From Geosiphon pyriformis uo1 (taxonomy: Eukaryota > Fungi > Glomeromycota): a stretch of 64,000 nucleotides of DNA. The stretch lies in NCBI GenBank assembly GCA_016748015.1, contig JAAOMT010000570.1, positions 438,043 to 502,042 of the forward strand, read 5' to 3'. Positions 1,230 through 62,855 of this stretch are shown piece by piece (position 1 is the stretch's first letter; each line of letters begins with the position of its first letter). The notes under the pieces were generated by a model. It did no database searches. It had not been told where the DNA came from and worked only from the letters and a program-made list of their open reading frames with translations. The position numbers and the translations under genes are program-made.

Positions 1230-2418
1230 ATGGACTTGGACAACTACTCTGCCTTAATGGAATTTTTGGGTAAAGGACAATACCCACTGAAATACACATG
1301 ACAACAAAGAGAACAATTGTGCAAACAATCAAATTTCTATTTGATCCACCAGAACCAATTATATAAAAGATCTTGACCGCCCCCAGAGAGTCATCAGATT
1401 TGAAGAAAAAGAAATTGTGATCTACAATATGCACACTGATCCATTAGCTGGACACTTTGGAAAAACAAAAACAATTCAGAAAACTCTAGCTCGCTATTAT
1501 TGGCCTACCTTGGAAAAAGACATTGCTGAATACATCAAAACCTGTGATATCTGCCAAAGAAGAGGAAAACCCAATCGCAAAGAAGATATCCATCCAATCT
1601 CTGTTGGTCAACCCTTTGACAGAATTGGTATAGATGTTGTTGGACCTTTAACAATAACTCCTGATGGCAACAAATACATTATCACAGCTACTGACTATCT
1701 TACAAAGTGGGTAGAAGCAAGAGCCACTTCAGACCAAACAGCAGTCTCAATAGCCAATTTCATTTATGAAGATATCATTTGTCACCACGGCTGCTCCAAA
1801 GAACTTTTATCTGACAGAGGAAGAGCTTTTCTCAGTACACTTGTTGAAAAACTTTGCAGAAAAATGGGAATACGTCACAAACTTTCCTCTTCTTATCACC
1901 CCCAAACAAATGGCCTAGTGGAACATTTCAATAGAACACTATGTGAAACCCTAGCCAAAACCAGCAAAGAAACAAACTTATGGGACAAAGTACTGCCTTC
2001 AGCTTTGTTTGCTTATAGAACTGTGAATCATGACATAACAAGTTATGAACCCTTTTATCTACTCTATGGATGAATGGCAACCCTACCAATAGAAACTGAC
2101 ATTGAGACAATACCCTTTGAAGAAATAACAATAGGGAATTACAAAGACATTTTGCAAAGAAGACTTGGTACCATTCTTGAGAAGCTTAAGAAAAAAAAAA
2201 CATATAAAACACTTTTCTTAAGTGTTGGTGACTTAGTTTTAGAATACCGTTCAGACAGAGACAATGTCTATGGTGATAAATTCTCTAGCTGGTGGAAAGG
2301 ACCCTTTATAGTCAACAAAGTTTTGAACAATGGTTCTTATATCTTACAAGATCAATATGGAACAATCTTCAATGATCGCCCTGTTCATGGCACACGACTC
2401 AAGAAATATCACAAATGA
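1230..2418 (+). pseudogene. A1 integrase, stand-alone ORF (HHCC, DDE core, GPF motif, no chromodomain)
   Basis: H-x5-H...CDIC, PFDRIGIDVVGPL, LLSDRG, YHPQTNGLVE and WKGPFIV. ATG at 1230. Confidence 0.92.
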
Positions 2419-2519: not shown

Positions 2520-3176
2520 ATGAACAATTATTTCTTAGATCAAAACATTCAAAACGCTTTCTATACTCTCTATAAGTACTGGATCAAAAATTATCCAAAT
2601 GTTACTCTGACCATTGGAAAACAAACCACCATAACTGATAACAGTGGAACACATACTGTTATTAAACCAAAGAAAACCACTACCAAAAGAGAAAGAATTG
2701 GTAGCAAAATGGATAAGTATTTGCTGAAAAGCATAACAGCAGCAATACTTATATCTTCCATGACAATTGAAAAAATGATTAAGGAAATCTTGCTTATAGA
2801 CAAAAACTTGTCATATGAAAGACAACTAAAACTCTATGGTCATCTTGGTAAAATCATAGAAGAAATGAAGCTCATGAAGAAAACAACTTCAGAGATACAT
2901 GTGGAAATTTTGGGCATTATATGTTTAGATGTCCCAAGAGTTTTGACCATTGTAAGAAGAGCCAAAACTCTTATACAAAGATTTGGTCTCTTGGATACAA
3001 AGCTTATTTCGCCTCAAGTACTATACACTCTATCCACAAAAGACTTCAACAAACTAGTTAGTTTTGAGTTAGACAAAACCCTTCAATTAGAATACCCTAT
3101 ATATAGCTTGATTTTGCCAGAGCTCAATCTCTTTGGAGAGAATGATGTTATGGTTGAAACCCATAATTTTTATTAG
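2520..3176 (+). CDS. A1 ORF3, 218-aa protein of unknown function downstream of integrase
   Basis: Open from AAC-ATG (MNNYFLDQNIQ...) through the PPT to a stop inside the LTR. Same 657-nt length in copies A3 and A4. Confidence 0.75.
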   Translation: MNNYFLDQNIQNAFYTLYKYWIKNYPNVTLTIGKQTTITDNSGTHTVIKPKKTTTKRERIGSKMDKYLLKSITAAILISSMTIEKMIKEILLIDKNLSYERQLKLYGHLGKIIEEMKLMKKTTSEIHVEILGIICLDVPRVLTIVRRAKTLIQRFGLLDTKLISPQVLYTLSTKDFNKLVSFELDKTLQLEYPIYSLILPELNLFGENDVMVETHNFY

Positions 3177-3835
3177 TTATTACATGTATTAGCCACTAAT
3201 GTCATATAATTAGCCACTCTATTTTTAGATAGTGATCATTGACCTGATCAATGACCTGACTGTTGACTTGATCATTGACCTGATCATTGACCTAGTCGTT
3301 GACCTGGTTGTTGATCACTTTCATTAGCTATATAAGCAATGAGTCTCTTAGCAGTAGAAAATCATCTCTCAAACAAGAATCAAATAAATAAAAATAACAA
3401 CTTTCATCTCAATCACTCTCTTATCACTAATTTCCCTTTCCCTACCTTCAAGTATCCGAACATCTTAGGATAAAAAATTACTTGTTGGTCTTTTTCTGAC
3501 ATATATAATTGTAGCATTTGAAGATTATTTGAATAAACATGACTGAAAAGCACAAGTTGATACCTGATATTGAATTCTAAGAGCACTAATGTGAGGCATA
3601 GAATTATACCAGTGGTGATCAATTGTTGACAGTATGGACTATCCCTCTACCTTCAGATTCCCCAGTTACCTTTGAAAAGAATAGTGATTGAGATATTTTA
3701 TAAGACTGATCTCGCACATTGAATCCATACTCATTCAATTCGCTCATTGAAGTTGAATTCCCTTTGATTATTTCTATCACCCTACAATCCTGTTCTTACT
3801 TGCTATTCATTAGCTTGTTACTCCAACCTGTAACA
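3146..3835 (+). repeat. Family A 3' LTR (690 bp) with 7 x 12-bp GATCATTGACCT array upstream of a TATA box
   Basis: TGTTA...TAACA termini; homologous to the LTRs at 4878, 8498, 15445, 29560, 30742 and 47669. Confidence 0.95.
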
Positions 3836-4854
3836 ATATAATAAATCAGTTCTCAATCCTTTTGTGAAGAAGTGGATCTTTTGCTCTTCAGTCCAGTTTC
3901 TACCAGAGTCTACACACTTGATGAGTTTTCTGATTGCTTTGGCATATTTGGTCACAACTTTACCAGGACCTTGGGTTCTTCTTTTTAATTCCATATGCCA
4001 TTTGGATATTAAGATGGGGATTCTGAATTTGTTTTCAAACTGGGTAGTGAAAGAGGTGTTGTTTTCTTCAATATTTGCTGGGATTCATCTAACAATTCTT
4101 TGTTGAGCACCAGCATTGGTTTCTTGTAAAAACCAGATAGCAGGGGAGCCTTGGAGGTAGCCACCAATGATTTGGAACTTGTATTCATCATCATACTAGT
4201 TTGCAGTGGCTGCTCTTTCAAAATTGTCCAACCATTCAATTGGATCTTGGGCATCACTTCTGAATAGGGGTAGTGGGGTGTTGTTTCTTCACCCCAAAGC
4301 AGTTTGTATGCCTTGGAGGGCGGCCAAAATGTTTGCTTGCATGGGGTCTTGGGCCATTGGTTCAGGGGTTACTGTTTGAGTGGAATGTTCTGATTCACTT
4401 AAAAAGAGATCAAAAATAGAAGCAGTTTGGTAACTTTCTTCTTCTGTTTCAAGGGGAGTTATAGTTGATTGGTGAGCAGCAACCCAAATGTGTATTTGAT
4501 GATTCAGATATTCGAAATCAGAGGGCTGTTGTGTGAAAGTTGTGGAGTATAAAAGCTGATTGATGCTATTATTTCTTTCTTCAAAGTTGTCTTCAAAATA
4601 AGCTTGGTCAAAGTAATAAGTTATATATGCTGTATAGGTTTCAGCTAAGTGCTCATTCAGAAACCAGTTCCAAAAGTCTTGGAATTGTCTACTAGATTGT
4701 TCTTCAAGAGGAAAGCAGATCAAGCAGGAGGGCAAGGGATTGAGTTTAATAAAGTCTAGATCATTTCTGTTGTGTGCTGCAAAGTGTTCTTCTGATTGCT
4801 GTGGCAGGTATAAATAATCACCCATACAATAAGGAAATAAGTGAATTTTGACAA

Positions 4855-4871
4855 CCTCACAGGGAGCACCA
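4855..4871 (-). promoter_or_regulatory. Family A primer-binding site TGGTGCTCCCTGTGAGG
   Basis: Starts with TGG (complement of tRNA CCA), 6 nt (TAAAAG) from the LTR end. Same motif at 31476-31492 and ~15422-15438. Confidence 0.8.
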
Positions 4872-5215
4872 CTTTTATGTTACGGGTTGGAGTAACAAGC
4901 TAACAGATATCAAGGAAGAACAGAATTGTAGGGTGATGGAAATAATCAAAGAGAATTTCAACTTTAAAGAGTGAATTGAATGAGTATGGATTCAATATGC
5001 GAGATCAGTCTCATAAAATATCTCAGTCACTATTCTTTTTAAAGATAACTGGGGAATCTGAAGGTAGAGGGATAGTCTGTACTGTCAACAATTAATCACC
5101 ACTGGTATAATTCTATGCCTCACATTGGCACTCTTAAAATTCAATATCAGGTATTAACTTGTGCTTTTCAGTCACATTTATTCAAATAATCATCAAATGC
5201 TACAATTATATATAT

Positions 5216-6089: not shown

Positions 6090-6492
6090 ATGTCAGGAAA
6101 AGGCCAACAAGTAATCTTTTATCTTTAAGATGTTCAGATACTTGAAGGTAGGGAAAGGGAAATTAGCAATAAGAGAAGGATTGAGATGAAAGTTGTTATT
6201 TTATTTATTCTTAATTATTTAGATGCTTATTATTACATGCTTTTCTACAACTAAGAAATTCATCACTTATATTGCTGTCAAAAGTGGTCAATGATCAGGT
6301 CAATGATCAGGTTAATGATCAGGTCAATGATCAGGTCATTGATCAGGTCAATAATCAGGTTAACAGTCAGGTCAACGGTCAGATCATTGATCAGGTCAAT
6401 GATCACTTTCTAAAAATAGTGTGGCTATTCATATAACATCAGTGGCTAATACATGTGATAATTAATAAGAAGTATAGGTCTTAACCATAACA

Positions 6493-7414
6493 ATATTATC
6501 TGTTTCCATAGATTTAGGTTCTTCAGTAGTAAGACTACTTCAGCTACTCTGTTTTTTCACTTGTTTCAGCAATTTCATAATGGGTTTTAATGTTTTTTTG
6601 ATTTTTTTGATTTCCCTCTTTGGATTGTATGCCTCTTTTTCTTTAGCCAAGTTAGACTTAGATATAATACTCTGGCTTAGTAACCTATTCTCCACCTCTC
6701 TTTTTTCCTCTGAAATGTGGCTCTGCTGTTGAGTGACTATTATGTCTTTTTTCTTTTCTACTGTTACTCCAAGTTTGGCAGTTACTGCACTCAGCAGTTT
6801 GGCCATTTCATTGACCTGCTGTTTCAACTCATCAATTTCAGCCTTCCATAGTTGGTTGATTCCTTTTTTTTGTTGGTCTTCTTTGTTGTTTACTTGTGGA
6901 CCAGGTTTTTGAGATCTGTTTGAATTTGTGTTGTTTAAATTATGGAGAGGTCTAAGTGCAGCCATTTCAGCATATGATCTTCCACCAAAGACTTTGATGG
7001 TATTCTCTGGAACATTCCTCCTAACATACAGCTTTGCCAATCTAATACTGTTGGTAACTTTCTTGTTATCTCCTTCTTTTTTCTTGTGTAAAGTTGGACA
7101 TTTGAAGACTAAATGTCCTACTTGGTAACAGAAGTGATACTCTTTGGCATCAATAGGCATCCAGTGAACCAATTTGTCTCCAATTACTAAGGGCTTAGTA
7201 GTAGTATTGTTGCAACTAGCTTCACTATCAAAACCAATGTAAGCACAGCTCATTCTTGTGTAATTCTTGCTAGTTCTTGGGATGAAGCAAGATTGGGCTT
7301 TGATCTGATCCAGAGTGGTACTCAAGTAGTGAGCAGTACAGTTTTGTAGTAAACCTACTAGTTTAGCTTTCCAGGTTTTTTTCTGCTCAATAGTATTCTG
7401 GGTACCAATTATTA
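6493..7414 (-). pseudogene. Non-LTR (LINE-like) element L-b, ORF1 C-terminal part
   Basis: RRM-like SCFIPRT...CAYIGF, decayed zinc knuckle YHFCYQVGHLVFKC and a coiled-coil-like tail. Continues at 17564-18201 across the L-a insertion. Confidence 0.75.
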
Positions 7415-9134
7415 GTCTTTTAAAAAACTCTTTCTCTTCTAATTTTCATGACCACAAATAGAGCTAAGAGTAAAAAAGTTGCAAACATTGCTTTTTCTAT
7501 AGTAACTAATAAAGTTTTAACACAAGAAGGTCTCTCTGTTATTGAAGCAACTAGACAAAACATTCTGGCAACATTTTTTTAAAAAAATATTAGTGATAAG
7601 CTGCCTTTAGCAGCTTTTGGTTCATTTTCTTCTCTTTTGGCTGGAAGTTCTTCTTCAGTCAAAGTTCCTTCAAAAAAGCACACTCAGGTTAGTCTCAGTG
7701 TTGTCTCTACCACTTTAAAAAGCCCAAAAATTTTTAATAACAGACCAGTCAACAAGTTGGTCTTTCCTGCTCTCATCACTCCCACTACTATTTCTACTAC
7801 TACTGCTTCACAAATGGCCACAAAAGTGAAAAATTCCAAAAAACAGCAGCAGACAGTCACAACTGCTATGGTCACACTGAATCTCTGTGGTTCCAGATGA
7901 GATCTTTAGTAAGATCTCCACAGCAGCAGCCAGTTCTCTTCCTGATATAGATGGCAACAGCAGCAAAACATCTCCCAAGATGGGCCAAGATCAACCACTG
8001 GCTGTATTGCCAGATGTGGTACTCTCTGACAGATCATCACCAATCTTAGTAGCAAAACAGCCCATCAATTCAGATGATCTCAAAGATTAGGCTAATCAGA
8101 TGGAAATAGAATCAACTGTTCCTCCCCCAGTTTCTGGTGCTGCTAATAGTGGTGCTTGAGAAAATGTAAATGGTCATCAGAGATTCTCTGGTTGGGTGGC
8201 CTCCAATCTAGTACTTGATATTACATTTAAGATCAAAATGGCTCTGCTTGGTTCTTTGTTTCAGTTGCTGTCTGGTTGTATTGGGCTTAAGTCAGTTTCA
8301 CAAGATGCTGTTAAGTTGTTTTGTGTGAAATTTGCATCTCAGGAGAGTCTAAATGGTGCCACCAAAGTGGCCATCAGTGATGAGATTTTTTTGACCACTC
8401 TTAAGATTGCACAGTCTTCTGGTGTGGTCTCTGTTTTTTCCTCTTCCTTGTTAGTTGTACTGCATAATATATCTTTGGGTACCTCTTTTGATGATATTGT
8501 TATGAGTTGGAGTAACAAGCTAACAGATAGCAAGGAAGAACAAGATTGTAGGGTAATGAAAGAAATCAAAAAGAATTCAACTTTAAAGAGTGAATTGAAT
8601 AAGTATGGATTTAATGTGTGAGATCAGTCTTATAAAATATCTCAGTTACTATACTTTTCAAAAGATAACCAAAGAATTTGAAAATAGAGGAATAGTTCAT
8701 ACTGTTAACAAATGATCATGCCTGGTATAATTCTATGTCTCACATCAGCACTTTTAGAATTCAATATCAGGTATTAGATGTACTCTTCAGTTACATTTTA
8801 TTCAATAATCTTCAAATGCTGCAATTACATGTTTCAAAAAAAGGGTAAAGAATAACTAACAAGTAATTTTTTATCTTTAAGATGTTCAGATACTTGAAAA
8901 TAGAGAAAGGAAATTTAGTGATAAGAGAGAGATTGAGATGAAAGTTGTTATTTTATTTATTTAATTTCCTTAATTTCTTCATGCTTTTCTATAGCTAAAA
9001 GATTTATTGCTTATATAGCTGTCAAAAGTAATTAATAATCAGGTCAATAACTAAGTCAATGATCAGGTCAATAATCACTTACTAAAAATAAAGTGGCTAA
9101 TTTATATGACATCAGTGGCTAATACATGTAATAA

Positions 9135-9791
9135 TTAATAAGAAGTATAAGTTTTAACCATAATATCATCCTCTCCAAAGAGATTGAGCTCCAGCAAAAT
9201 TAAGCTATTCATGGTGTAATCTATTGGAAGGGTTTTATCTAACTCAAAGCTAACTAGTTTGTTAAAGTCTTTTGTGGATAAGGTATATAATACTTGAAAC
9301 AAAATGAGTTTTGTATCCAAGAAACCAAATCTTTGTATTGGAGTTTTGGCTCTTTTAGCAATAATTAAAACTCTTGGGACATCTAACCATATAATGTCCA
9401 AAATTTCTGCCTGTATCTCTAAAGTTGTTTTCTTCATGAGTTTCATATTCTCTATGATTTCACCAAGACAACCATAGAGTTTTAATTGTCTTCCATATGA
9501 CAAGTTTTTGTCTATGGGTAAGATTTCTTGAAGTGTTTTTCTAATTGTGCTGGAAGGTAGAAGTATAGCTGCTGTTATACTTTTCAACAGATATTTATCT
9601 ATTTTACTACCAATTCTTTCTTTTTTGATAGTAGTTTTCTTTGGTCTAATAACAGTATGTGTTCTGCTGTTATCAGTTATAGTGGTTTGTTTTCCAATGG
9701 TCAGAGTAGTATTTGGATAGTTTTTAATCCAATACTCATGGAGAGTATAGAAGGCATTTTGAATGTTTTGATTCAGAAAATAATTGTTCAT
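9135..9791 (-). CDS. A3 ORF3 (218 aa, open)
   Basis: Colinear paralog of 2520-3176 with no internal stop. Confidence 0.75.
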   Translation of the reverse strand: MNNYFLNQNIQNAFYTLHEYWIKNYPNTTLTIGKQTTITDNSRTHTVIRPKKTTIKKERIGSKIDKYLLKSITAAILLPSSTIRKTLQEILPIDKNLSYGRQLKLYGCLGEIIENMKLMKKTTLEIQAEILDIIWLDVPRVLIIAKRAKTPIQRFGFLDTKLILFQVLYTLSTKDFNKLVSFELDKTLPIDYTMNSLILLELNLFGEDDIMVKTYTSY

Positions 9792-9892
9792 GTTGATTGA
9801 AGATACCTCTGTTTTGGGAATGGTGCATTTATTTATACTTGATTTTTGCTGATTATTTGAGTCGGTATTACCACAACAGGCAGCCAATCAGG

Positions 9893-11102
9893 TCATTTAT
9901 GATATTTTTTGAGTTGTGTACCATAAACAGGACAATCATTGAAGATTGTTCCAGATTGATTTTAAAGAATATAAAAACCATTGTTCAAGACTTTGTTGAC
10001 TATAAAGAGTCTTTTCCATTGGCTAGAAAATTTATCACCATAAACATTGTTTCTGTGTTTTATAGATTTTTTTTTTTAAGCTTTTCTTAGAACTGTTTTA
10101 TTTTTTCAAAAGCAATTATTTGTGTTTCTATCAAGGAGTCAAGAATGGTACCAAGTCTTCTTTGCAAAATGTCTTTGTAATTTCCTATTGTGATCTCTTC
10201 AAAGGGTATTTGTTTCAATGTCAGTTTCTATTGGTAGTGTTGTCATGTATCCATAGAGCAGATAAAAAAGTTTATAACTTATTATGTTATGATTTACAGT
10301 TCAATAAACAAACAAAGCTGAAGGCAGTATTTTGTCTTATAAGTTTGTTTCTTTATTGGTTTTGGCTAAGGTTTCACATAATGTTTTATTAAAACGTTCT
10401 ACTAGGCCATTTGTTTGGGGGTTATAAGGAGAGGAAAGTTTATGACATATTCCCATTTTTCTACAAAATTCTTTAACCAGTGTACTAAGAAAAGCTCTTC
10501 TTCTATCAGATAAAAGTTCTTTGGGGCAGTCATGATAGCAAATGATATCTTTATAAATGAAATTGGCTATTGAGACTGCTGTTTGGTCTGAAATGGCTCT
10601 TGCTTCTACCCACTTTGTAAGATAGTCAGTAGCTGTAATAATATATCTGTTGTCATTAGGAGTAATTGTTAAAGATTCAACAACATCTATACCAATTCTG
10701 TTAAAGGATTGACCAACAGAGATTGGATAGATATCTTCTTTGTGATTGGGTTTTCTTCTTCTTTGACAAATGTCATAGATTTTAATATATTCAGCAATAT
10801 CTTTTCTTATAGTAGGCCAATAATAATGAGCTAAAGTTTTCTGAATTGTTTTTGTTTTTCCAAAGTGTCTAGCTAATGGGTCAGTGTGCATGTTGTATAT
10901 TATAATTTCTTTTTCTTCAAATTTGATGACTCTCTGGAAGTGATCAGGATCTTTTCTGTTTCTTTTGTATAATTGATTCTGGTGGATCAAATAAAAATTT
11001 GATTGTTTGCACAAATGTTTTTTTTTGCTGTCGAGTGTATTCAGGTGGGTATTGTCCTTTATTCAAAAATTCCATTAAAGCAGAGTAGTTGTCCAAGTCC
11101 AT
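9893..11102 (-). pseudogene. A3 integrase (degenerate, separate ORF)
   Basis: ORF 10337..11014 has MHTDPLARHFG and NPQTNGLVERFN. Confidence 0.9.
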
Positions 11103-11166
11103 TATCATGTTTGTTTGTGAAGGAGTTACTAATAATTAAGTTGGTTTGGTTTAAGAGGTTGTACTG

Positions 11167-13850
11167 TCACTGAATGATAAGTCTAGATAGAGCATCAGTG
11201 TTTTGATGATTTGCTTCTTTGTAATGTTGAATATCATAGTCAAATTCATCTAATTAGAGTATCCAGCAAGTTATTTGTTTGTGTTCCAGCTTCTTTTTAT
11301 TGTGCAGCCAAACCAAGGCTTGATGATCTGTTACCACTAAGAATTTTGCACCAAGAAGATATTGATCCCAATAACTAGTAGCCCAAACTACTACTAAGCA
11401 TTCTTGTTCAGTAACTGAATAGTTCTTTTCTGCTGATGTAAGGGATCTACTGGCATATGCTATGGCATGTTCTCTGCTATTTTCATCTTTCTGTAAAAGG
11501 ACAGCACCAAGTTCATAACCAGATATATCAGTGTAGAGGATAAAAAGTTGGTCCAGATTAGGTTGTTTGAGAATTGGTTCAGTAACAAGTTTTTCCTTTA
11601 GAAATTCAAAAGCTTTTTGTTGATGAATGCCCCAATGATAATTGACATTTTTTCTGAGTAGCTGGTTGAGAGGAAAGGCAATTTTGAAAAAATCCTTGAT
11701 AAATTTGCGATAGTGAGAGACCAAACCAAAGAAAAAGCATAGTTTAGAAACATTCATTGGTTGTCTAATGTTATAGACTTTTTCAACTTTAGCTAAGTCA
11801 GGGAAGATTCCATCTTTTATAATAAGATGACTAAAGAACTGGGTAGATAGTCATCCAAAAAAAGATTTGATTGGGTTGATATTAAGGCCAGCATTTCTGA
11901 GCAGGCTAAAAACCTTCTGTAAATGTTCAAGGTGTTCATCCCAGGTTTTTGAATATACTATTATGTCGTCCAAGTAAACCAGAACAAAGTTTTTTTTTAC
12001 TGATTCAAACACTTTATCCATTAGGCATTGAAAGGTGAGAGGAGTATTGATGAGACCAAAAGACATGACTGTGAATTCATAGATGCCATATATGGTAATA
12101 AAGGCAGTTTTCTTTCTGCTTTCTGGATCCATCTCTACTTGTCAGAATTCAGCAGTTAAATCAATGGTTGAGAAAAAAGCAGCACCATTAAATTTATTTA
12201 GCATTGCATCAATTTTGGGGAGTGGATATATGTCTCTTATAGTAATGGCATTTAGTTGGCAGTAGTCAACACAGAAGCATAGGGTTCCATCTTTCTTGAA
12301 TATTACTACAACTGAGAAAGCCTATTTACTCTTGGTTTTTTGTATGAATCCAAGATCTTTCATCTAAGTTATCTCTTTCTTAATAAACTTATCATTGTGT
12401 CGATTAGATTAATAAGGCTTTAAATGGATGGGATGTGTTTCTTTTATGGTGATGGTATGTTGTATTACATGGGTTTGTCCAGGGGTGTTACTTTCTTTTG
12501 AAATAACTGGGCTATTTCTAGCCAACAGATTTTCAATGTCTATTTTTTTTTCTTTAGGAGAAGGTTCTCTTTGTTTTACAACTAGTAATTGGATTTCAGG
12601 TGGTTCATTCTCAAAAGACTTTTGTACTTCTTTAAGTTTTTCTCGAGGTATCAAGCTAATTGGTTCCCAATCTTTGTAATAAATTAGGCAGGATTTGCAT
12701 TCATTACTTGGTGAATACAAAGGTTTATTACACCAGCACCATGTACAAGAGTCATGCCACTAATAACTGTATTTTGCTTTCTTGCTAGGTTTTCTGTCAA
12801 AAGTTCTTTTGAGGATATCATAGTAAGGCCAGCAGATCAGCTTGCCATTTATCATGATTCCTTTTTTGTTAGCTTTAACATTATCCAATGGTTTGCCATT
12901 GCTGGTAAAGATAGTATAAGCAAGTTTAGCAGTTTCTTCTGGTTCTTTTTGATCTTTATTATTGCTTTCATCATCATCTGATTCATCTGATTGTTCTTTT
13001 TCTTGGTTCTGTTTGGTTGCTGGAAAAGTTGTCCAATGATGGCATTTAACTACAATGGGTTTTTTACCACATTTGATGGTTAGCTTGCAAAGTTCATAGT
13101 CAAGTAGTGTTTTGGTTTTCTTAAGCCATTCATTACCAACAATGATGGTGTACTCTTTTGCTTCAGATACTTCCATATCTGTTTCAATGCTGATACTATT
13201 GATGCAGACAGGAATAGCTTTGGCTATGCTCAGGCCTTTCTTCTTGTCACCATGTACATTGGTTATTGGTCTTGTGGAAAGCTCATCTATTTTTTTGCCA
13301 ATTGCTTCAAGAAAATGTTTGGCAATTACACTAACAAATGATCCACTGTTTAGGATCAGATCAATGAAATAACCAGCCACTTGGGCTTTACAAATCAGAG
13401 GGGTGACATTGCTGTTATCAGCAATTCCAGCTTGGCGAGAGTGTTTGTTGGTCTTTGGTGTCTTTTTCTTTAGTATCAATAATTTGTGAAAATCTTTTCT
13501 GTGAATGAGTCATTAGTTGGCCAAATGTAATATGTGCTGAGGTTTTCATAAGATCTTTAACAACAGAATAGGTCCAGATTTTTGTATAATTTTTGGGGGT
13601 TTCAACTTTGGAGGATTTTTAAAAATCTTAGCTTTTGGTGGCTTATTGTTATTAGCAGATGATTTGGATGTTTTGTTTGGGTCCAAGACAAAATCAACTT
13701 TGGCTTTCTTCTTCTTTCTGGTTGATTCAGAAGTGTTGATTGCTAGTTCATCCATATCATGATCATCATCAGTTAAATTAAAAGTGAAAAAGGGGTTTTC
13801 TTCTGGTTGGCTTGTACTCTCACCCTTTAGAGGTGTACCTACTAGTTTAA
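11167..13850 (-). pseudogene. A3 protease-RT-RNase H (degenerate)
   Basis: LILNSGS (decayed DSG aspartic protease), YLDDI and AIAYASRSL. Confidence 0.9.
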
Positions 13851-13853
13851 AGG

Positions 13854-15392
13854 CTAATAAACAGTGGCTTCAACTAGGGGATCCTCTCCAAAGAAATTGA
13901 TGTTGGCATGATCTGGTCTTTGGTTGGGAATATTATTGTTGGTGGTTCTATTGTTTTGATTGTCATTGTTTCTAGGAGCTGGAGGGGACAATAGAGAATT
14001 GTTGTAGTCTCTTGAGAAGTGTCCAGTTAGTCCACAGCAATAGCACACAAGTGGGCCACAATTTTGCTGTCTTTGATATAGTGGTTGTTGAGACTAATTG
14101 AAGCAGGGTTCAAATCTGGGTCTTTGGGATTGTTGATTCTCTCTAACTGCTTGGGCCAAAGATTCTAATAGCTAGGCAAGATTTGCTGTAAGTTTATCTA
14201 TTAAATTTTCATTTGGATTTTGAGTTTGGGCAGCAAAAGAGGTAGCAGCCATTTGTGAAGCAGGAACCATAATAGTAGCAGAAGCAAAAACTGGTAATAT
14301 AGATCCCAAGTGCATCCTTTGGTTGTCTTTAATTTATTGGGCAAGTTCAATGGCCATGTCCATTTTTGGGTTGTCTTTTAAAGCCAAGAGAGACCAAAGA
14401 GCATATGATAGATCAGTTCTTAATCTTTTTGTGAAAGAATGGATCTTTTGCTCTTCTGTTCAGTTTCTCCCAAAATCTACTTGTTTGATTAGCTTTCTGA
14501 TAGCTTTGGCATATTCAGTCATTATTTTTTCAGGGCCTTGGGTTCTTCTTTCTAGTTCCATGCACCATTTGAATATTAATATTGGGGTTCTGAATTTTGT
14601 TTTAAACTGGGTAGTAAAAGAGGTGTTGTCTTTTCCAGCATTTGCTGGTGCCCATCTAATGATTCTTTGTTGAGCATTGGCATTGGTTTCTTGTAAGAAC
14701 CAAGTAGCAAGAGAGCCTTGGAGGTAGCCACCAATGATTTGGAACTTGTATTTGTTATCATATTGGTTTGCTGTGGCAGCTCTCTTAAAATCATCCAGCC
14801 ATTCAATTTGATCTTGGGCATCACCTCTGAATAATAGTAATAGAGTGTTGTTTCTTTGCTCTAAAGTAATCTGTATACCTTGGAGGGCGATTAGAATGTT
14901 TTGTTGTAGAGGGTTTTAAGCCATTGGTTCAGGTGTAACTGTTTGTGTAGAGTGTTCTGATTCACTTGAAAAGAGATCAAAAACAAGAGCAGTTTGATAG
15001 CTTTCTTCTTTTGTTTCAAGAGAAGTTTCAGTTGATTGATAGGCAGCAATCCAAATGTGGATTTGATGATTCAGATATTCAAAATCAGGGGGCTGTTGTT
15101 CAAAGATTGTTGAGTATAAAAGTTGATTAATGCTGTTGTTTCTTTCTTCAAAATTGTCTTCAAAATAAGCTTGGTCAAAGTAATAAGTTATATAAGCTGT
15201 GTTGGTTTCAGCTGAATGCTTATTCAGGAACCAGTTCTAAAAGTTTTGGAATTGTCTGCTAGATTGTTTTTCAATGGGAAAGCAAATCAAACAGGAGAAC
15301 AAAGGTTTGAGTTCAATAAAGTCTAGATCGTTTTTGTTGTGTGCTTCAAAGTGTTTTTCTGATTGTTGTGACAGATATGAATAATCACCCAT
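13854..15392 (-). pseudogene. A3 gag (degenerate) with CCHC knuckle
   Basis: CYCCGLTGHFSRDY knuckle remnant; homologous to A2 and A4 gag. Confidence 0.88.
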
Positions 15393-17563
15393 ACAATAGA
15401 AAACAAAGTGGATTTTGACAATCTCACAGAGAGCACCACTTTTATGTTACGGATTGGAGTAACAAGCTAATGGATAGCAAGGAAGAACAAGATTGTAGGG
15501 TGATGAAAGGAATCAAAGGGAATTCAACTTTAAAGAGTGAATTAAATAAGTATGAATTTAATGTGTGAGATCAGTCTCATAAAATATCTTAGTTGCTATA
15601 CTTTTCAAAGAATAACTGGGGAATCTGAAGGTAGAGGGATAGTTTATACTGTTAACAAATGATCATGCCTGGTATAATTCTATGCCTTATATCAGTGCTC
15701 TTAGAATTCAATATCAGGTATCAGATGTACTTTTCAGTCACATTTTATTCAATAATTTTCAAATACTGCAATTACACATTTCAGGAAAAGGGTAAAAAAT
15801 AACTAACAAGTGATTTTTTATCTTTAAGATGTTCAGATACTTGAAAGTAGAAAAAAGAAATTTAATGATAAGAGAGAGATTGAGATGAAAGTTGTTATTT
15901 TATTTATTTGATTTCCTTGATTTCTTCATGCTTTTCTATAACTAAGAGCTTCATCACTTATATAGCTGTCAAAAGTGGTCAATAATTAGATCAATGACTA
16001 GATCAATGATCAGGTCAATGATCAGGTCAATAATCATGTTATTGATTAGGTCAATGATCAGGTCAATAATTAGGTCAATGGTCAGGTCATTGATCAGGTC
16101 AATAATCACTTACTAAAAATAGAGTGGCTAATTTATGTAACATTAGTGGCTAATACATGTAATAATTAATAAGAAGTATAAGTTTCAACCATAACAATAT
16201 CAAAACTGCTCTTGGCATTTTTGGTGTTGTTACTTCTGTTAAGTTGAAGCCTGCTGGCTTATGGCAATATGCTGTGGTTAATTTTAAGAACATTTTTTCT
16301 GCTGCTGCTGCTCTCTCTAACTGGTCTGTATTGGTCAGAAAAAATAGTGTTAGGATTTTTCTTATCACCAACCAAAAGGAAATTATCTTCTCAAGAAATA
16401 CATTCAAAGCTAAGTTGGTTAATCTTCTATTTGGCTGTATTGCTTTTGAGATAAGTGATTTGGTCTTTCAAGTTGGTGGCCATACATGTTTCATTCCTCG
16501 CTTCCCTGAATCTTATTATTGTTAACACTTTGCTGTGGTTACCTTTGATTCTTTGAAATCTCTGAATGTTGCTGTGTCAAAAACTGGTATCTTGTATGGT
16601 TGTCACATCTGGTGGAAAACTTTTGGGTGTTGTCACTGCTACAGGTGTTAAGACTTGAATTATTTAGCTGTAAACTGTAAGAAGTTGCCTCCTCCTCCAC
16701 CTAAACTTCTTTCCAACACCTTTGGTGGCCCCAAAAATTTCAAACCTTCATTTGTTGGATCTAAATCTTATGCTAAGACTGCTGTTTTTGTGGTTCCTCT
16801 TAGTGCTGCTACTGCTAATATGGACTTGGATCTTGGTGGTCCTCCCAAAACTGTGACACCCATGTGCCTGCTGTCTCTTCTGTTTCCAATTCTGCTGTTG
16901 AATCTAAATTGGCTTCTTTTGAATTCTACCTTAGTGAACTATCTGTGTTGATAAAATCCTTAGTTAAATCTGTCGGTGCTCTGGTTGCATTGGTTATCAA
17001 ATTGCTGTCTACTCCATCTGCTGTAGATGTGTCAGTTAAAGAATGTGTGGATAAATTGGCTAAGCAAAACAAAAACTTGGCTGCTGTTGCCATTATAATA
17101 CAGAAAAGAATGACATGTCTTGAGAAAATATGTGAATGGACCTGCTTGGAGGATGAATCAGATGGTGATGACATGGTTGATAATGTTGATGATAATGATG
17201 ATGAAATTAAAGACTTTTCAGTTTATGATAATACCTTTGATGTTATAATACATCTATGAGAAGATCAGCCTTTCAGAATCAAATTCAGTCCTAATCAGAC
17301 TGCTAAGTGGATGAGTGGTATGGTTAAGAATAGTCATGAACTTGTTAGTATTATGGGTAAGATGTATGAATTAGATATGTTTGATATATTAGATAGCAAA
17401 GATAGTACTAGCATGTAGTTAGGACTTTCCACTTGTAGTTAGCTACATCTTGTAATTTTTGTATTATTGGGTAAACTGGCTTTGTGAAATTACCATATTA
17501 CTGTGACTTAACTAATAAATGACCAGCATGGCTACACATTAACATAAAAAAAAAAAAAAAAAA

Positions 17564-18201: not shown

Positions 18202-19338
18202 TTTTTTTTTTGTTAATATGTAGCCATACTGGTTTTTTATTAATTTAGCCACACTCAAAAAGCATAACTTTTTTATAAAGCCAACTCACCCAATAAACTA
18301 AATTACAAGATATGGCTAACCACTAAGCAGTTATGTCCAACTACATGCTAGTATAACCAAAAAATTTATAAGGTATCCCACTGTTATGGTTTAAGAATTT
18401 AGTAAAAAAATCATAAAAATAATACAAACTATTCAATCATAATATAGTGCAGTAATAATCTTAGAAAGGTAATAATTAACATAGTAGCAAACACCATCTC
18501 GTGATAGTGGCAAACACCAGTTCACAATAGCAGCTAACACCAACTGGTAATAGCAGCAAACACCAGGTTGAAATATCAAAAAGAAAGTATTACAATGTGT
18601 TTTCTTATAGAACTACAAACATGTATATATACAGTAGCTTTAATATTGGGAAAAGACAATCAAGTAATAAAAATCATAATTTATCAAGCAATAGATCCAA
18701 TTTTATCCAACAAACTCCACTTTAAATCGTACTTTTAAATTAAATATTCTAAGAAACCTTTAAATCAAAAAAAAATGAAAAAAATATATTTAAAACTGAA
18801 TTATCACAACCCAAAGTATTAAGAAACTTACTTGTATTATTTATTAAATGAAACTATCATTCATCAGCTGAATCTTTTGAAAGAATAATCCTTGATCAAA
18901 ATTATTTACGTTGTTACTAATTGATAAAAGCTTTATTGTAAGAATTAAGAAAAGCACTAAAGACAATTAATATTCTGTGTTTCTAAATTAGAGAAACACA
19001 TCAGGCAATTGCAAGGATAGTCTCAGAGAAGACCCCAAACAGTGGGTAGATTTCAGTTTAGCCTCTGAGAAGGAATACATAAACACACACAACAATTAAG
19101 AATTGAGAAATAACTTACATCGTGACATTAAAAAGAAAGCCTTCAGTATAACAGTGCCATTATTACACAAATAGAATTAAAAAACTCACGAAAGACTGAT
19201 TGCAATTAAAACAGGATATCGGCAATTAAATATAACAAGAAGACCATTTCGTAACATTTGGTGAACTCTATGAGGAAAGAAAATCAAAAAGAAAATAATA
19301 ATTAGCAATAATTCATTGCTAAAAAGGAAGAGACAAAA

Positions 19339-22300
19339 GTGGCAACAAAAACCTCTAACCTTACTGTTCTTGAATTCTGCCATGCTATTTACACACAAAA
19401 TCAAAGTAATCTTGGATTACCAGAAGAGTGTTGTCCAGCAGAATCTGCCCTTACTTATTATATCAATGCCAGAATAAATTATCATATAGGAAAGGAAGAA
19501 GAACCACATGATACAAAACTTGGATTGTATAAAGAATTATCACAATACATTATAAAAGAAGTAGCAGTAATAGCCACAATTATTGTCAAAATCCATCAAG
19601 AAATTGAGCAATATGCCAACAAAAATTTTCCAATATCCACAGAAAACACTAGGAAATGCACCAACAAAACCAAAGAAAATTCAGAAACTAATCAGGAAAG
19701 TAACCAGCAAAAACTAGGAACATCTGCTCAAACACCAAAAAAAACTGTCACTTAATCAATAAAAAAACAATGTATTTATTCACCAGAAGATAAATCATAC
19801 CATTTTTCACTAGAAAATAAGATACAAATTCCATTAGGAGCTGCATCATCATCAACATCAACTTTACAAATGCCAAAAACTCCTAGTTATACTAATAAAA
19901 TTAAACAACGTAACTGGGGAGACATATCAATTATAGGAGGATATTCATCACTATTCCAAAATCCTTTTTTTCAGCCAAAATTTGGAACAGGGTTTGAAAA
20001 CTGTGAAGAGAAGTCTGAATTGGAATCTGAAAAAGAGACCAGTGAAAAAACAATCACAAGACCAGTCACTGGAACAAGCAGCCAATCCAGAAACCAAAAA
20101 ACTCGTAATCAAGAAGAAAAACCAGATATAAAGGAAGCCATCTTCAGGAATGCTCAAGAAAATATCATCCCACCTTCTCTTAGACCAATAAGCCCATTAG
20201 TAGAAAACGGCAATGAAATGGCCACACCATACATTGCAAGACTAACAGATTTTTCAGGAGAGGAAGAAGAAATGGATGTGCACACATGGCTCAGAAAAGC
20301 ACAAAAAGCCATCCAGGCAAATAACTGAAATGACCAAAGAGCAATTCAAACATTATCTTTCTTTCTGAAAGACACAGCCAACTTGTGGTATCAAAGCATG
20401 GAAACAAAACCCACAAGCTTCGCCGAATTTAAAAATGCACTTCTGGAGTATTTTAGCAACCCAAATACTGTAATCCAACTACAGAATGAATTCAATACTA
20501 TCAAGCAAAATACTGGTGAAACTGTCACCTAATACTTTGCTCAATTCAATCGAATTCGCCATCAAATTGAAGTGATTGAACAAAGATACTACACTGATCC
20601 TCAGGTTTTAAATCAGTTTATTAGAGGATTAAAAAACAGCATTTTAGGAAGAATATGCCCTGCCCACCCTAATTCCTTACCAGAAGCTGTTACACTCGCC
20701 AAAGCCCTTGAATCGGCTGAGAAAAAAGCTAACCATAGTCAAATAGTTAACATGGTAATAGAAAAAAATAAGACAGAAACATTAGAAAAAAGAGTAACAC
20801 AATTAGGGAAGGAACTCCCTAAGAAAATAGAAAGTTACCTCATCCCGGATCCAAGAAATACATACCAACCACCCCAAAAATGCAGCCAGGAAGTCAGCAA
20901 CAGTCAAAATAATCACTCGTCGCGCCAAAAATTCAAAACAGAAACGTGCACCTGCCATTTTTGCAAATGCATAGAACATTTGATTAGTCAATGTCGAATA
21001 CGAATGATGTAGGAAGCATGTGAAAATAATTACTACACACCACCCCAAATGCCCAGAAACTAGTACATGCCAATACCACATCAATATCCCACCACATATC
21101 AAAATCAAGGAACTTACCAGTAACAGCCCATAATAACCAATCTGTATTGGCATTCTGAGGCCCAAAATCAGCCCATGTGAAACCAAAACACATTGGTCCA
21201 AAGGAATCCAAACTGTGCTGGAACCAATCAGCAAACCAATCTAAACTACCAAAATTATTAACAAACTTACCTTAATATACTGGAAAATCCAATCATCAGA
21301 AACAATAATGGTAGAAACATAAACAGAACCAAAAATTCCTTCAACAAATTGAGCCAGACAATACCACCAGCAGTTGCCACCAAAGATAGCAGCCTTGCAG
21401 CTATTTTTCTTTTTGAATTAGAGAAAAACAAGGCTATGTTCAGTGGAGCAGTATTGAATAAAAAATGCCCAATCACTGCTATGTATATGAAAGCCACTGT
21501 AAACAATACCCCAATCAAACTTATCTTAAATAGTGGATTTGCTGGAAGCATCATAATGCTTCAACTAGTAAACCAACTAGGTTTCAAAGTTAATTGTGCC
21601 ATGATGTTTCAAATTATAACAGTCAATAGAAGTACAAAGCTGCCTCATGGCAAAATCGACTCATTCTCTTTTGAAATTAATGGCATAGTGATACCTGCAA
21701 AAGTGTTAGTAATGGATGCTACACAATATCAAGTGTTAGTAGAGAATAACTGGTTAACAAAAGCCAATGCCACCCTAAACTGGACCACCCAAGAGCTTCT
21801 GATCAATTATAATGGCCACCAGGCCAGAATTCTAGCCACCTGTGGCCACTTCCAAAAACCCAGTGCCAACCAAAGACCTACCTTCGAATTTGAGGAAAAT
21901 CCAGTACTACCAGCCATTGAAACCTATCAGCTCTTTTGGACTGATGACCAAAGAACAGGACTACTAGCCATACCAACATGGACCAGTAAAGAAAGATCTG
22001 AATAGAACCAAGGTAAGTCCATGAAGAAACCACCAGCAATGCAGACCAAAGCTAGAATGCTCGGTTTGCAAGAAAAAACTCTCGTCTATGACTGCATGCA
22101 GTGCACCAGATGAAGACCCAAGAAACCCCACCCACTACTATTATAACTATTATAACAAAGAAAAATACAATTACCTAGAAAGACATGGAAAATAGAACAA
22201 GGAATCATGCCTTGCTTGTGGAGAACTATTACCAAGAAGGTGCGACTGGAACGACATACCAGGCAGAGGAAGAACATGTAATGCAACTTGCCAATACACG

Positions 22301-25038
22301 ATCCTCATCTGTGACTGGGTAAGAGGAAGAACACCATTCAAAACAGCATTCAACAGAGCATTAAAAAGACTACAGCACTACCCACACAACAAGGACGAGT
22401 TGTACAACACCACACAAGCCAAAGTAAGAAGAAGAACCGTCAAAGAAATACGATGCTGGAAAGAGTCAGCCAAAGTAGCTGACGAAATCACCAGCTACAA
22501 CATGTTTGACCCAGTGGATGAATTCCAGGACTACTACCAACAACTATGCCCCACTCGACAAGAGCAAAAACAATATCTTGCCCAAATTAACACTTATCTC
22601 TGCAAAAACTGTCTTATTCCATGCCAAAATCAGTGCTATAAAGAGTGTCAAGACAAAAGGGACTTAGAAAAAAAAATAAAAATTGAGAATCAGCAGTCTC
22701 AAAATTAATCAATAAATTAACAAGGCTTATCTGATGGTCCCAAGTTAGAAAAATTTGTAGCCTATACCAACCTAAAACAGGTAATTGACATCCAATACTT
22801 TGACAATGGGCACTTAGAAATAATACTTGAAAGAATTCATCCAACTGATGCCAGATTCAATCTACGTTATTCAGAAGACCAATTCACAACATTACTACCC
22901 AGGAGCATTACCAAAATTGACCTAAAAATAGTGGTTAAAATTTCGCCAAGAATAATGGTTCAAATAGCATCGCGATTAAGCCTTGCAAAAAAAGGAATAA
23001 GTGTTCAAAGAGAAGTAATTGACTCTGGATACACTGAAAATTTGATGGTTTTGCTACAAAACAATTCAGAAAAGCCTTATACTATTGAATTTAAGAAAAA
23101 AATTGCACAAGCAATTTTCCTACCATTGGTAAAAATTGGGAAATTTGTGCCAGTAGAAAATTGTGAGGAATTGTCACAAACAACGAGAGAAACTTTTGGT
23201 TTTAGATTGACAAGAAAAGAAATTGAAGCAAATTTCGCTGAAACAATAGAGAAAAAAAGCAAAGTAATTAAAAATGAGCAGTCCATCATGTTCCTACCAT
23301 ATGAAAAATCAGAAATAAGAATAAAAAGAACAATTAAAGAAAAAGACCTAATATTTAAGCTTTATCCAAAAACTTGCCAACAGTTTTTCATAGGACTTAC
23401 TAACTTTTTTATTCCAGTTGATAAAGCTCAATGGATAAAAATTCCTATCACAAACACCACAGAAGAACTCATCTACATTCCGGAAGATACCATCATTGGA
23501 TACCTTGGAATGGAGCTAGAAAATGCATCAACACTACAAGAAATTCTAAATTTCCCAGAAATTGTCCTCTACTGTGAACTCACTTCAATAAATTGGCAAC
23601 AACCATTAGAATGCTATCAATTTATGCCAGAAGAATTGGCCAAATTAAACATTGGAACAATGGATCCTGACTAACAGCAACAATTAAAAGCATTAATTTT
23701 AAAATACTCTGATATATTTTCACAAAATGGCAAATTTGGAAGAACCAACTTGGTTCAACACCAAATCTCCACTGGAGACACCAGACCTAAAAAACAACAT
23801 GCTTACTGTGTTCCACCAATAGAGCATAATTTTATCAGAGAAGAAGTCCAAAGCATGTTGGAAAAAGGAATAATACAACCATCAATGAATCTATGGTCCT
23901 CACCAGTTGTTTTAGTAAGGAAAAAGAATGGAAAAATTAGATTTTGTGTTAATTATCACAAACTAAACAGCAAAACAACCAAAGACTCATATCCAATACT
24001 GTTAATTGACAAAATCTTCAATGTTTTTGGAGGAGCAAAATGGTTTTCTATATTGGACTTGACTAGTGAATACTGACAAGTGGAAATAGATCCAAAGAAC
24101 AGGCATAAAACAGCATTTACAACACAAAATGGCAATTATGAGTTCAATGTAATGCCATTTGGATTAACAAATGCCCTCACGACATTCCAAAGACTAATGG
24201 ACATAATTTACTCTGCAATCCATTGTTGTCTACTTGGATGATACAAATGTTTTCTCGTCAAAATTCACAGATCATCTCCAACATTTACAACAAGTTTTTG
24301 AAAGATTGAGACACACTGGACTTAAACTAAATCTAGAAAAATGTTTCTTTGAGAAAAATAAGTTGGCATTTTTAGGACACGTAGTTGGAAAAGATAGAAT
24401 AAAACCAGATCCATCAAAAATAGACAAAGTGAAAAATTTTCTAGTACTTCGAAATGTTTCAGAAGTTAGAAGCTTTTTAAGACTCACATCTTACTACTGC
24501 TGCTTTGTAAAAAAACTTTTCAAACATTACCAAACCTCTTAATTACCTACTATCCAAAAATGTGAAATTTGAATGAACTGAAGCACAACAAAAAGCTCTT
24601 GAGTATCTTAGACAAAAGCTTATTGAATCACCAATAATAATCTATTCAAATTTCAACAAGAAATTCATTTTGGCCACAGATGCCTCTGGAACTGGACTTG
24701 GAGCCATTCTGTCACAAAAAGATGATAATAGAAGAGAATGTGTAATCACTTATGCCAGCAGAAGTCTCAGTATGGCAGAACAAAACTATATAGCACATGA
24801 ACTTGAATGCTTAGTAGTAGTCTGGAGTTGTGTTTACTTTGACACATATTTACAGTACCAACTCTTTGAGATTACCACAGATTATAGAGGTCTGGTCTGG
24901 TTAAATAACAAGAAAGCACTAAAAAAAAAATATGCCAGATGGTTACAAACATTAGTACCATACGATTATATTATCAAATACAAAGAAGGTACCAAAAATG
25001 CTAATGCTGACTGTTTGTTAAGAATGAAACACACATAA
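19339..25038 (+). pseudogene. B gag-protease-(Cys-rich domain)-dUTPase-RT-RNase H (degenerate)
   Basis: Capsid-like LTDFSGEEE...W, knuckle CHFCKCIEHLISQC, protease LILNSGFAGS, RT (YL)DD at ~24230, RNase H TDASGTGLGA. Confidence 0.9.
22820..23215 (+). pseudogene. B dUTPase domain
   Basis: Decayed trimeric-dUTPase motifs: HPTDARFNL (motif 1), IASRLSLA (2), VIDSGYT (3), KIAQAI (4), TRETFGF (5). Confidence 0.88.
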
Positions 25039-25067
25039 AAATCACCAATCCACCTGCCACAACAACA

Positions 25068-26698
25068 ATGAACAACCACCTTTACAAAAACTTTAGCCAA
25101 TACTTGGAAACACTACAAATAGACGAAGAAATGCCAGTAAAAGAGCTAATTAAGCTCCAAAAATTAGCAAAACACTATTTTATCCAAAATCACATACTTT
25201 ATTACTGGAATCAACAAAATCCAGATAATCCATTAAGAGTTATAACCACGGATGAAAAAAAAACTATCTTATTTAACATGCACTCAGATATTCATTCAGG
25301 CCACTTTGAAAAAACAGCAACTATTCAACGTGCAACTAGCCATTACTATTGGCCAAAAATGAGTTCAGACATAATCCAATACATAAGAAATTGTAACCCA
25401 TGCCAACAAAGAGAAGGAGCAAAAACAACAGAATTATTAAGACCAATAAAAGTTGGACAGCCATTTGACAGAATTGGAATTGATTTAATTGGACTCTTAC
25501 CAATAACAACAAGAAACAACTGTTATATTGCAGTAGCCATGAACTATCTCACCAAATGGCCAGAAGCTAGAGCTATTAAAACAGCTGATGCTATTTCTGT
25601 AGCTCAATTTGTACATGAAGACTTAATTTGCCAGCATGAATGTTCACAAGAATTGCTATCAGATCAAGGCACACACTTCATAAACAGCACCTTAAAAAAA
25701 CTTAGCCAAAAATTTGGAATCAAACGACCACTGTCANNNNNNNNNNNNNNNNNNNNAACAAAATCCAGATAATCCATTAAGAGTTATAACCACGGATGAA
25801 AAAAAAACTATCTTATTTAACATGCACTCAGATATTCATTCAGGCCACTTTGAAAAAACAGCAACTATTCAACGTGCAACTAGCCATTACTATTGGCCAA
25901 AAATGAGTTCAGACATAATCCAATACATAAGAAATTGTAACCCATGCCAACAAAGAGAAGGAGCAAAAACAACAGAATTATTAAGACCAATAAAAGTTGG
26001 ACAGCCATTTGACAGAATTGGAATTGATTTAATTGGACTCTTACCAATAACAACAAGAAACAACTGTTATATTGCAGTAGCCATGAACTATCTCACCAAA
26101 TGGCCAGAAGCTAGAGCTATTAAAACAGCTGATGCTATTTCTGTAGCTCAATTTGTACATGAAGACTTAATTTGCCAGCATGAATGTTCACAAGAATTGC
26201 TATCAGATCAAGGCACACACTTCATAAACAGCACCTTAAAAAAACTTAGCCAAAAATTTGGAATCAAACGACCACTGTCATCACCATACCACTCTCAAAC
26301 AAATGGATTAGTTGAAAGATTTAATTGCACATTATGCAAATTACTGGCGAAAATTAGTAATGAACATGAAAAAAAATGAGATTTGTTTATACTAGCAGTA
26401 CTACTAGCATATAGAATAGTAAAACAAGATACTACACAATTTATACTATTAGAACTAGTTTATGGAAGAAAAGCCATATTACCAGTTGAACTTACTATCC
26501 CAACTTATCCAAGTGACACTATTATGGAAGCAACATTCCAGGAAACACTACTTAGAAGAACATACAAATTAATGGGAACTTTAGAAAACAAAAGAAGAAA
26601 AACAGCACAAAATATTGAACAATCACAAGAACAACAAAAAGTGAGACATGATAACCAGTTACTAGATAATATAATTAGCTACAAAATTGGAGATAAAG
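25068..26698 (+). pseudogene. B integrase, separate ORF (contains an assembly duplication and gap)
   Basis: ATG 25068 after RNase H stop at 25038. HSDIHSGH...CNPC, PFDRIGIDLIG, SDQG and QTNGLVERFN. Confidence 0.9.
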
Positions 26699-26718
26699 NN
26701 NNNNNNNNNNNNNNNNNN

Positions 26719-43549: not shown

Positions 43550-43595
43550 AATACAAAACCAACATCCATTTGAATTAACAACAAAACAACAAACA

Positions 43596-44981: not shown

Positions 44982-45103
44982 CTTAAATTTATTATTATAG
45001 TTATCTCTTTATAATTTAAAAACAACCTCACAAAAACAAAGCAAAAATAACATATAAACACATATGCCAAAAATAATTTTCTTTTATTTTTAAATCTTTT
45101 ATA

Positions 45104-52980: not shown

Positions 52981-52987
52981 CATATAC

Positions 52988-53029
<42 letters not shown>

Positions 53030-53034
53030 GTATA
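52981..53034. repeat. (TA)n microsatellite with CATATA/TATATG flanks (palindromic)
   Basis: Direct reading. Confidence 0.9.
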
Positions 53035-62834: not shown

Positions 62835-62855
62835 AAGTTCCTATTTAAAATTTTC

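Follow-up and report, generated by a model that had tools for sequence, protein, structure and literature searches.

A conserved accessory open reading frame follows a separate integrase ORF in Gypsy elements of Geosiphon pyriformis

We analysed a 64 000 nt stretch of the Geosiphon pyriformis genome (hereafter the window), in which self-comparison and reading of the junctions resolved five Gypsy elements belonging to three families, designated A, B and C (Table 1). Pfam domains and a tblastn map placed gag, protease, RT, RNase H and integrase in this order between two LTRs, which is the order of Ty3/Gypsy. A fourth, heavily mutated A-type remnant was also present and had been missing from the initial annotation of this sequence. 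The region around it (48397–49860) was more AT-shifted than the other A copies, with a local GC content of 17 %, which suggests that this insertion is older or has mutated more heavily. More A-type LTR and gag fragments lay at 3836–5213, 6095–6500 and 29553–30205, and the A-type LTR at approximately 6095–6500 carried ten copies of the 12 bp unit. A different repeat family, probably of non-LTR retrotransposons, was represented by fragments at 6540–8621 (minus strand), 16819–17259 and 28767–29685 (minus strand), with an RNase H-like piece at 29293–29685. Host genes occupied the right end of the window; in addition to those tabulated, we take the gene at 51389–52613 (minus strand) to be a TLD-domain gene, and that at 61238–62442 is presumably POP1-like.

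Table 1. Coordinates of elements, ORFs and signals in the window and at metagenome locus L001
Feature	Position	Strand	Details
Element A1		+	5' part cut off by window start; 3' LTR 3146–3835
A1 integrase, separate ORF	1230–2418	+	RNase H stop 1161–1163, Met ~1230; frameshifted in A1
ORF3 of A1	2520–3176	+	Open, 218 aa; own ATG 101 nt past integrase stop; last 31 nt within 3' LTR
Box and polypurine tract of A1	3120–3145	+	GAGCTCAATCT
A1 3' LTR	3146–3835	+	TGTTA..TAACA; 12 bp tandem array 3233–3306
Element A3, complete	8498–16196	-	LTRs 15445–16196 and 8498–9165; target duplication ATAT; no dUTPase
ORF3 of A3	9135–9791	-	Open, 218 aa; 79 % identity to A1
Element B, complete	18382–28239	+	LTRs 18382–19256 and 27365–28239; target duplication CCAC; 23 bp LTR array
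ORF3 of B	26719–27351	+	One internal stop; start inside N gap 26699–26718; ends just upstream of polypurine tract
Element A2	30742–48396	+	LTRs 30742–31469 and 47669–48396; element C inserted in integrase tail
Element C, complete	36906–46770	+	LTRs 36906–37884 and 45792–46770; target duplication CCGT/CCAT; 20 bp LTR array
ORF3 of C	45104–45823	+	239 codons, three internal stops; own ATG 122 nt past integrase stop; last 32 nt within 3' LTR
ORF3 of A2	47043–47699	+	Three internal stops; 81 % identity to A1
Fourth A-type remnant	48397–49383	+	Heavily mutated; 3' half of ORF3 and LTR
Host genes at right window end	51389–63903		HisG 57226–58394; GDT1 63082–63903 (minus strand)
RNase H stop/integrase Met regions	1161–1230, 25040–25065, 43547–43580; L001 772–800		
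GAGCTCARTCT box sites	3120–3130, 9181–9191, 27338–27348, 45767–45777, 47643–47653; L001 3092–3102		

The LTR pairs within elements were 90–94 % identical, and the LTRs of all three families started with TGTTA and ended with TAACA or a one-base variant of it. A check for the primer-binding site and polypurine tract (PPT) found TGGTG 3' of the 5' LTR, and a PPT was present. Target duplications of 4 bp flanked three of the four complete elements (exact for A3 and B, with one mismatch for C), and no matching duplication was seen at the LTR flanks of A2. Each family had its own tandem array in the LTR, with units of 12 bp in A, 23 bp in B and 20 bp in C. Directly before the PPT, A, B, C and a metagenome locus described below (L001) shared the box GAGCTCARTCT. 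Ten sites in the window matched this box with at most one mismatch: four exact matches and one single-mismatch match all lay at ORF3 ends, and the remaining five were a different, LTR-internal word. The box was conserved across families with unrelated LTR bodies, and probably serves plus-strand priming as a cis signal. The initial annotation had regarded the LTRs as unrelated between families, which is true of their bodies but not of their ends or of the pre-PPT box. A C-terminal 'ELNL/ELSL' motif was discarded as protein evidence, as it proved to be this DNA box, which B and the subfamilies E, F and G introduced below translate in a different frame (GAQS/GAQF/GAQY). Because the box is translated in differing frames per family, the common C-terminal peptide reflects a constraint on DNA. 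We also discarded 120 box-pattern loci in viral contigs as relatives; these had neither integrase nor ORF3 and were therefore chance matches.

In all five elements of the window, as well as in L001, RNase H ended in a stop codon and integrase restarted at its own methionine. Presence in every element makes the split integrase a lineage trait rather than a product of decay, and bears out its mention in the initial annotation. How a stand-alone integrase is expressed and enters the particle is a question perhaps as interesting as ORF3. The Pfam scan of integrase core pieces detected no chromodomain, and the tails, judged by eye outside that scan, stopped soon after a GPY/F-type region. Integrase identity was 49–51 % between A and B/C and 56 % between B and C. 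A 524 nt duplication in the B integrase (25213–25736 and 25757–26280, 100 % identical, with an N gap in between) is probably an assembly artefact. B and C carried a dUTPase between protease and RT (22781–23215 and ~41317–41703, respectively), a placement described for fungal Gypsy elements (PMC6431247). In this respect B and C resemble the dUTPase-bearing fungal elements, whereas A lacks a dUTPase. Upstream of the dUTPase, both B and C had an extra uncharacterised cysteine-rich stretch (22196–22708 and 40666–41082).

Between integrase and PPT, each of the five elements carried a further ORF of 218–239 codons (ORF3). All five copies reported by the initial annotation were recovered, each lying between integrase and the 3' LTR, with that of A3 on the minus strand; the A1 and A3 copies were fully open as described, at 218 aa each, and the motifs that had been quoted were present in the ORF3 sequences. 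The reading frames of A and C continued through the PPT and 31–32 nt into the LTR. Other Geosiphon copies of B ORF3 started with a methionine approximately ten residues before the tabulated start. The A1 protein was 100 % identical to an NCBI G. pyriformis protein over 97 % of its length. A candidate splice signal upstream of the A ORF3 ATG was rejected, since its branch site was not conserved in the three A copies.

Homology between the B and C proteins was evident from blastp (25 % identity, E 3e-17) and hhalign (E 1.3e-6), and no DNA match between the two was seen in the window self-comparison. Database searches with A-type ORF3 yielded 128 proteins, and all 120 matches listed were G. pyriformis hypothetical proteins. 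B/C/D-type searches yielded 214 proteins, including a further subfamily, D, and all 120 matches listed were from Geosiphon (the subfamily letters D–G were coined in this analysis). D aligned with B at E 2.8e-12 and with C at E 4.5e-98 in hhalign. From 244 proteins, 64 A, 3 B, 56 C and 34 D sequences entered the profiles at cut-offs of 80 % coverage and 70 % identity, the others being excluded. A B/C/D profile, built with A left out, found 56 matches among 1.84 billion representatives, comprising 18 of type C, 11 D, nine E, six G, five B, four F and three single metagenome types. Twenty of the 56 were looked up, of which 17 were Geosiphon proteins and three were metagenome proteins; a further search added five more metagenome proteins. 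Core identity between types was 14–48 %, with the exception of C and D (77 %). Judged by these sequence comparisons, the B/C ORF3 family comprises six or more Geosiphon subfamilies and three metagenome types. The one metagenome contig recovered, L001 (one of 595 pattern matches), displayed an RNase H stop, an integrase ORF, ORF3 with its own ATG, the box, a PPT and TGTTA. This same gene order indicates that the ORF3 gene and its position extend beyond the Geosiphon genome.

Among the three A copies, dN/dS of ORF3 was 0.28–0.34 in frame and 0.42–0.67 in shifted frames, compared with control values of 0.28–0.35 for integrase and 0.18–0.21 for RT-RNase H, all by a simple counting method that is easily skewed by the C>T and G>A changes prevailing in these copies (80 of 122 private changes). 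Given this bias, the comparison with the controls outweighs the dN/dS value itself. A ratio near 1 had been named beforehand as grounds for rejecting the initial annotation; the value within A copies was approximately 0.3. On this evidence the A ORF3 is under purifying selection, like integrase. For B/C, the retention of a reading frame at 14–48 % core identity and the lack of a B–C DNA match point to selection as well.

ORF3 sits in the env position, and we therefore considered whether it could encode an Env-like membrane or fusion protein. Errantivirus Env, the ORF3 of Drosophila gypsy, is encoded after integrase in elements that make a 4 bp target duplication and have no chromodomain. The elements described here are alike in the post-integrase position and the 4 bp target duplication, and none of their scanned integrase core pieces showed a chromodomain. 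Their ORF3, on the other hand, has no membrane anchor and no cysteine-rich ectodomain, is about half the length and gave no sequence match to errantivirus Env. None of ten ORF3 proteins had a membrane span, the highest 19-residue hydropathy being 0.6–1.7; cysteines numbered 0–3 and the N-termini were polar, with no sign of a signal peptide. Together with the small size of the protein (218–239 aa), the soluble helical model detailed below and the absence of any Env family match in Pfam, these features make an Env-like protein very improbable. The initial annotation had likewise described ORF3 as helical, without a transmembrane span and not a typical Env, and the hydropathy maximum of 1.7 and the model agree with it. 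Its further description as basic suits A (pI 9.3–9.5) and C (8.9) but not the other six proteins tested (5.4–8.3), and hence not the family as a whole (5.4–9.5).

An AlphaFold model of an intact C copy, based on 59 sequences, had a pLDDT of 75 and a pTM of 0.61, with residues 71–210 at about 80–94. Its N-terminus comprised a helix (5–18), two strands (24–28 and 33–37) and a disordered basic stretch (38–59), followed by core helices at 63–76, 91–99, 108–128, 133–148, 153–167, 171–175, 184–189 and 192–229. Conserved core residues were Y110, G116 and L119 in helix 108–128, N152 in the turn at 149–152, and R162 and F167 in helix 153–167, and a further conserved cluster spanned residues 187–195. 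In the model, helices 133–148 and 153–167, with a conserved G-x-T-N turn between them, look like a helix-turn-helix-like pair.

A confident match to a described family had been named as a result that would count against the initial annotation, and none emerged: ORF3 had no match at the curated cut-offs of Pfam, PHROGs and NCBIfam, none among PDB sequences, and none with the C model in Foldseek at E ≤ 0.001 in PDB or BFVD. In a wide VIA structure search the best hit (Z 4.5) was a designed protein and scores were below those of unrelated helical models, a lack of fold match that does not in itself show a new fold. Below these cut-offs, DUF1016_N (PF17761) matched five of 59 members (best E 0.015, residues 109–173 of the first member), the score of the first member being 12.9 bits, far below the Pfam cut-off of 32.8. 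The Atlas listed DUF1016_N as well, at 0.89 and in rank 16 of 30. Structural rows in VIA included sigma-F (Z 4.0, rmsd 2.3, 57 aligned) and Spo0J/ParB (Z 3.2, rmsd 5.5, 93 aligned), neither above unrelated rows, and the CHD1 C-terminal domain (Z 4.0, rmsd 3.9, 79 aligned). The recurrent lead from profiles and model is thus a weak one, to a three-helix nucleic-acid-binding type. ORF3 shares with DUF1016_N (the YhcG N-terminal domain) and the ParB/Spo0J helical domain a weak profile, embedding and structural resemblance over a three-helix core; it differs in having neither the PD-(D/E)XK nuclease nor the ParB CTPase domain, in belonging to a eukaryotic retroelement and in scoring far below cut-offs. 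DUF1016_N is itself without an established function in the account consulted (PMC1189080). Weak, unexplained library matches were also returned to SNaCT12, FtsQ and phrog_23683; the last, a family of unknown function, was matched by 15 of 59 members (best E 1.4e-4).

The initial annotation had aligned ORF3 by eye across all three families. The alignment was upheld for B and C by the blastp and hhalign values above; for A, significant profile-profile similarity to B/C, whose absence had been set beforehand as refuting, was not found. No significant similarity of A to B/C was obtained with blastp or tblastn, and hhalign of A, whose alignment is shallow (Neff ~1.3), against B, C and D gave E 0.2–0.4, within the range of 30 column shuffles. 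Deeper alignments of B/C relatives (three alignments in all) still left A short of significance in hhalign. In hmmsearch the A median was 2.1 bits against a shuffle maximum of 7.0, and in a global PSSM comparison A reached Z 3.2 (column shuffle) and 1.7 (block shuffle), which overall did not exceed four unrelated ORFs of the window (up to 2.8 and 3.5); a true member, when left out, scored 7.0 and 5.8. Viral contigs contained no relative of A ORF3. The sole A-like sequence among the 56 profile matches (P0249) was rejected as a bridge to A because it is a chimeric gene model, composed of D residues 1–142 and A residues, that matched through its D part. These failures, and the absence from A of the dUTPase present in B and C, would fit a different gene having replaced ORF3 in A, or independently filling the same slot, with one protein shared by B, C and their relatives. 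Such a replacement has to contend with the position, length, ATG spacing and pre-PPT box of A ORF3, which are as in the other families, and with an anchored test using three blocks defined on non-A members. On A, these blocks landed in order on the motifs of the initial annotation, and the A median of -8 was reached by nine of 283 natural negatives and 13 of 300 shuffles (p ~0.03–0.04), left-out true members scoring 29–82. The A model, of low confidence (pLDDT 40) and too poor for fold searches, consisted of a helix, hairpin, linker and helices, and matched the order of elements in C up to the third core helix. With a borderline block test and failed profile tests, A is a plausible yet unproven member. 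We consider it somewhat probable that the A ORF3 is a strongly diverged version of the B/C gene, and replacement by another gene a serious possibility of lesser probability; the latter concerns membership and is compatible with any of the functions proposed below.

Additional ORFs between pol and the 3' LTR are well known in LTR retrotransposons (PMC7264820; PMC5408684). ORF3 has the properties that define such an aORF, lying past pol and ahead of the 3' LTR as an additional frame, recurring in many copies and being under selection. As in the aORFs of these accounts, it is a sense ORF found in most copies, conserved approximately as well as integrase and separate from gag-pol. The sense aORFs described there either resemble Env and have membrane spans or encode enzymes, namely a GDSL esterase or a DEDDy exonuclease (PMC7264820; PMC5408684). 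In contrast, the ORF3 product is helical and soluble and matches no family, and its host belongs to the Glomeromycotina. The combination of a split integrase and ORF3 was not described in the literature searched, and our search, which lay outside Repbase, subscription papers (the Geosiphon genome paper included) and supplements, found no published description of the protein. In the available text of a 2011 survey of fungal LTR elements, the terms 'ORF3' and 'third ORF' do not occur (PMC3248453). ORF3 thus appears to represent an accessory protein family new to the literature, carried by a distinctive Gypsy lineage with a split integrase, within the already known category of additional ORFs. 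That an accessory ORF defines this retrotransposon lineage, as initially suggested, accords with its conservation, selection and non-Env character and with the same layout in the metagenome element. These findings support ORF3 as a conserved, selected, non-Env accessory gene that marks a Gypsy lineage with a separate integrase ORF.

With regard to function, we tentatively favour a regulator that would bind DNA at the LTR repeats of its own element, a possibility suggested by the model and by analogy. The ORF3 protein would be produced from a spliced or internally started RNA, enter the nucleus and bind the family-specific tandem repeats in the LTR, where it might raise transcription or hold silencing off its own family. 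Such a regulator is favoured by the resemblance of the core to a helix-turn-helix, by the weak DNA-binding leads given above, and by the much faster divergence of ORF3 than of integrase while the LTR arrays differ per family. It is disfavoured by the failure to find a confident fold match, by DUF1016_N scores well under the Pfam cut-off, by a pI that is not uniformly basic and by the lack of a significant family link for A despite near-equal integrase identities. LTR tandem arrays are, moreover, common in retrotransposons without such a gene, which also counts against it. A precedent in its favour is the anti-silencing protein VANC of the Arabidopsis VANDAL transposons, described as acting via family-specific tandem motifs (PMC6719617). 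VANC is likewise an accessory protein of families with their own tandem motifs; unlike the elements here, VANDALs are DNA transposons, and as no sequence or fold link to ORF3 was seen, the analogy is functional only. A nuclear location has been described for maize Grande GENE23 (PMC7264820).

An integrase made outside the Gag-Pol polyprotein would need a helper, and ORF3 could instead be a partner in the particle or pre-integration complex that loads integrase, carries it into the nucleus or provides targeting in place of a chromodomain. The RNase H stop and fresh integrase methionine in all five window elements and L001, each with an ORF3, would accord with such a partner, as would the absence of a chromodomain from the scanned integrase pieces. 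Co-occurrence within one lineage is, however, expected from common descent alone, and the contrast between ORF3 (B–C identity ~25 %) and integrase (56 %) is less expected of a tight partner to a conserved enzyme; we regard this role as rather doubtful. Fast divergence would also fit a conflict with the host, and ORF3 may bind RNA or host proteins instead of DNA, for instance to help the downstream RNAs to be exported or translated, or to suppress silencing by small RNAs. The basic linker and small helical core of the C model are compatible with this role, and the Atlas neighbours of A included phage translational repressors (0.91–0.92, with 125–132 shared features and a low recognition score). 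As this Atlas match was within chance range and no RNA-binding family was matched in Pfam, PHROGs or NCBIfam, we consider binding to RNA or host proteins unlikely.

Returning to a regulator of the LTR repeats, its most far-reaching form would comprise an undescribed Gypsy lineage from early-diverging fungi with three separate products, namely a Gag-Pol that lacks integrase, integrase on its own, and ORF3. The last would be a DUF1016_N/ParB-like helix-turn-helix protein, possibly of prokaryotic ancestry, acting on the LTR array as a per-family transcription factor or anti-silencer, and would be a counterpart of VANC that helped to drive the expansion of LTR elements in Geosiphon. LTR sequences are reported to make up 41.2 % of the G. 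pyriformis genome (PMC11952901). As a whole this scenario is improbable, if conceivable. What the additional ORFs of retrotransposons do is an open question that ORF3 makes accessible: a small, intact, soluble protein with matching family-specific LTR arrays renders their role directly testable across families.

Hundreds of G. pyriformis 'hypothetical proteins' are the ORF3 retrotransposon gene. Many of the NCBI Geosiphon gene models are chimeric, with ORF3 pieces spliced to adjacent transposon sequence (P0249, P0250, P0281 and P0282), so that apparent fusions are inflated.
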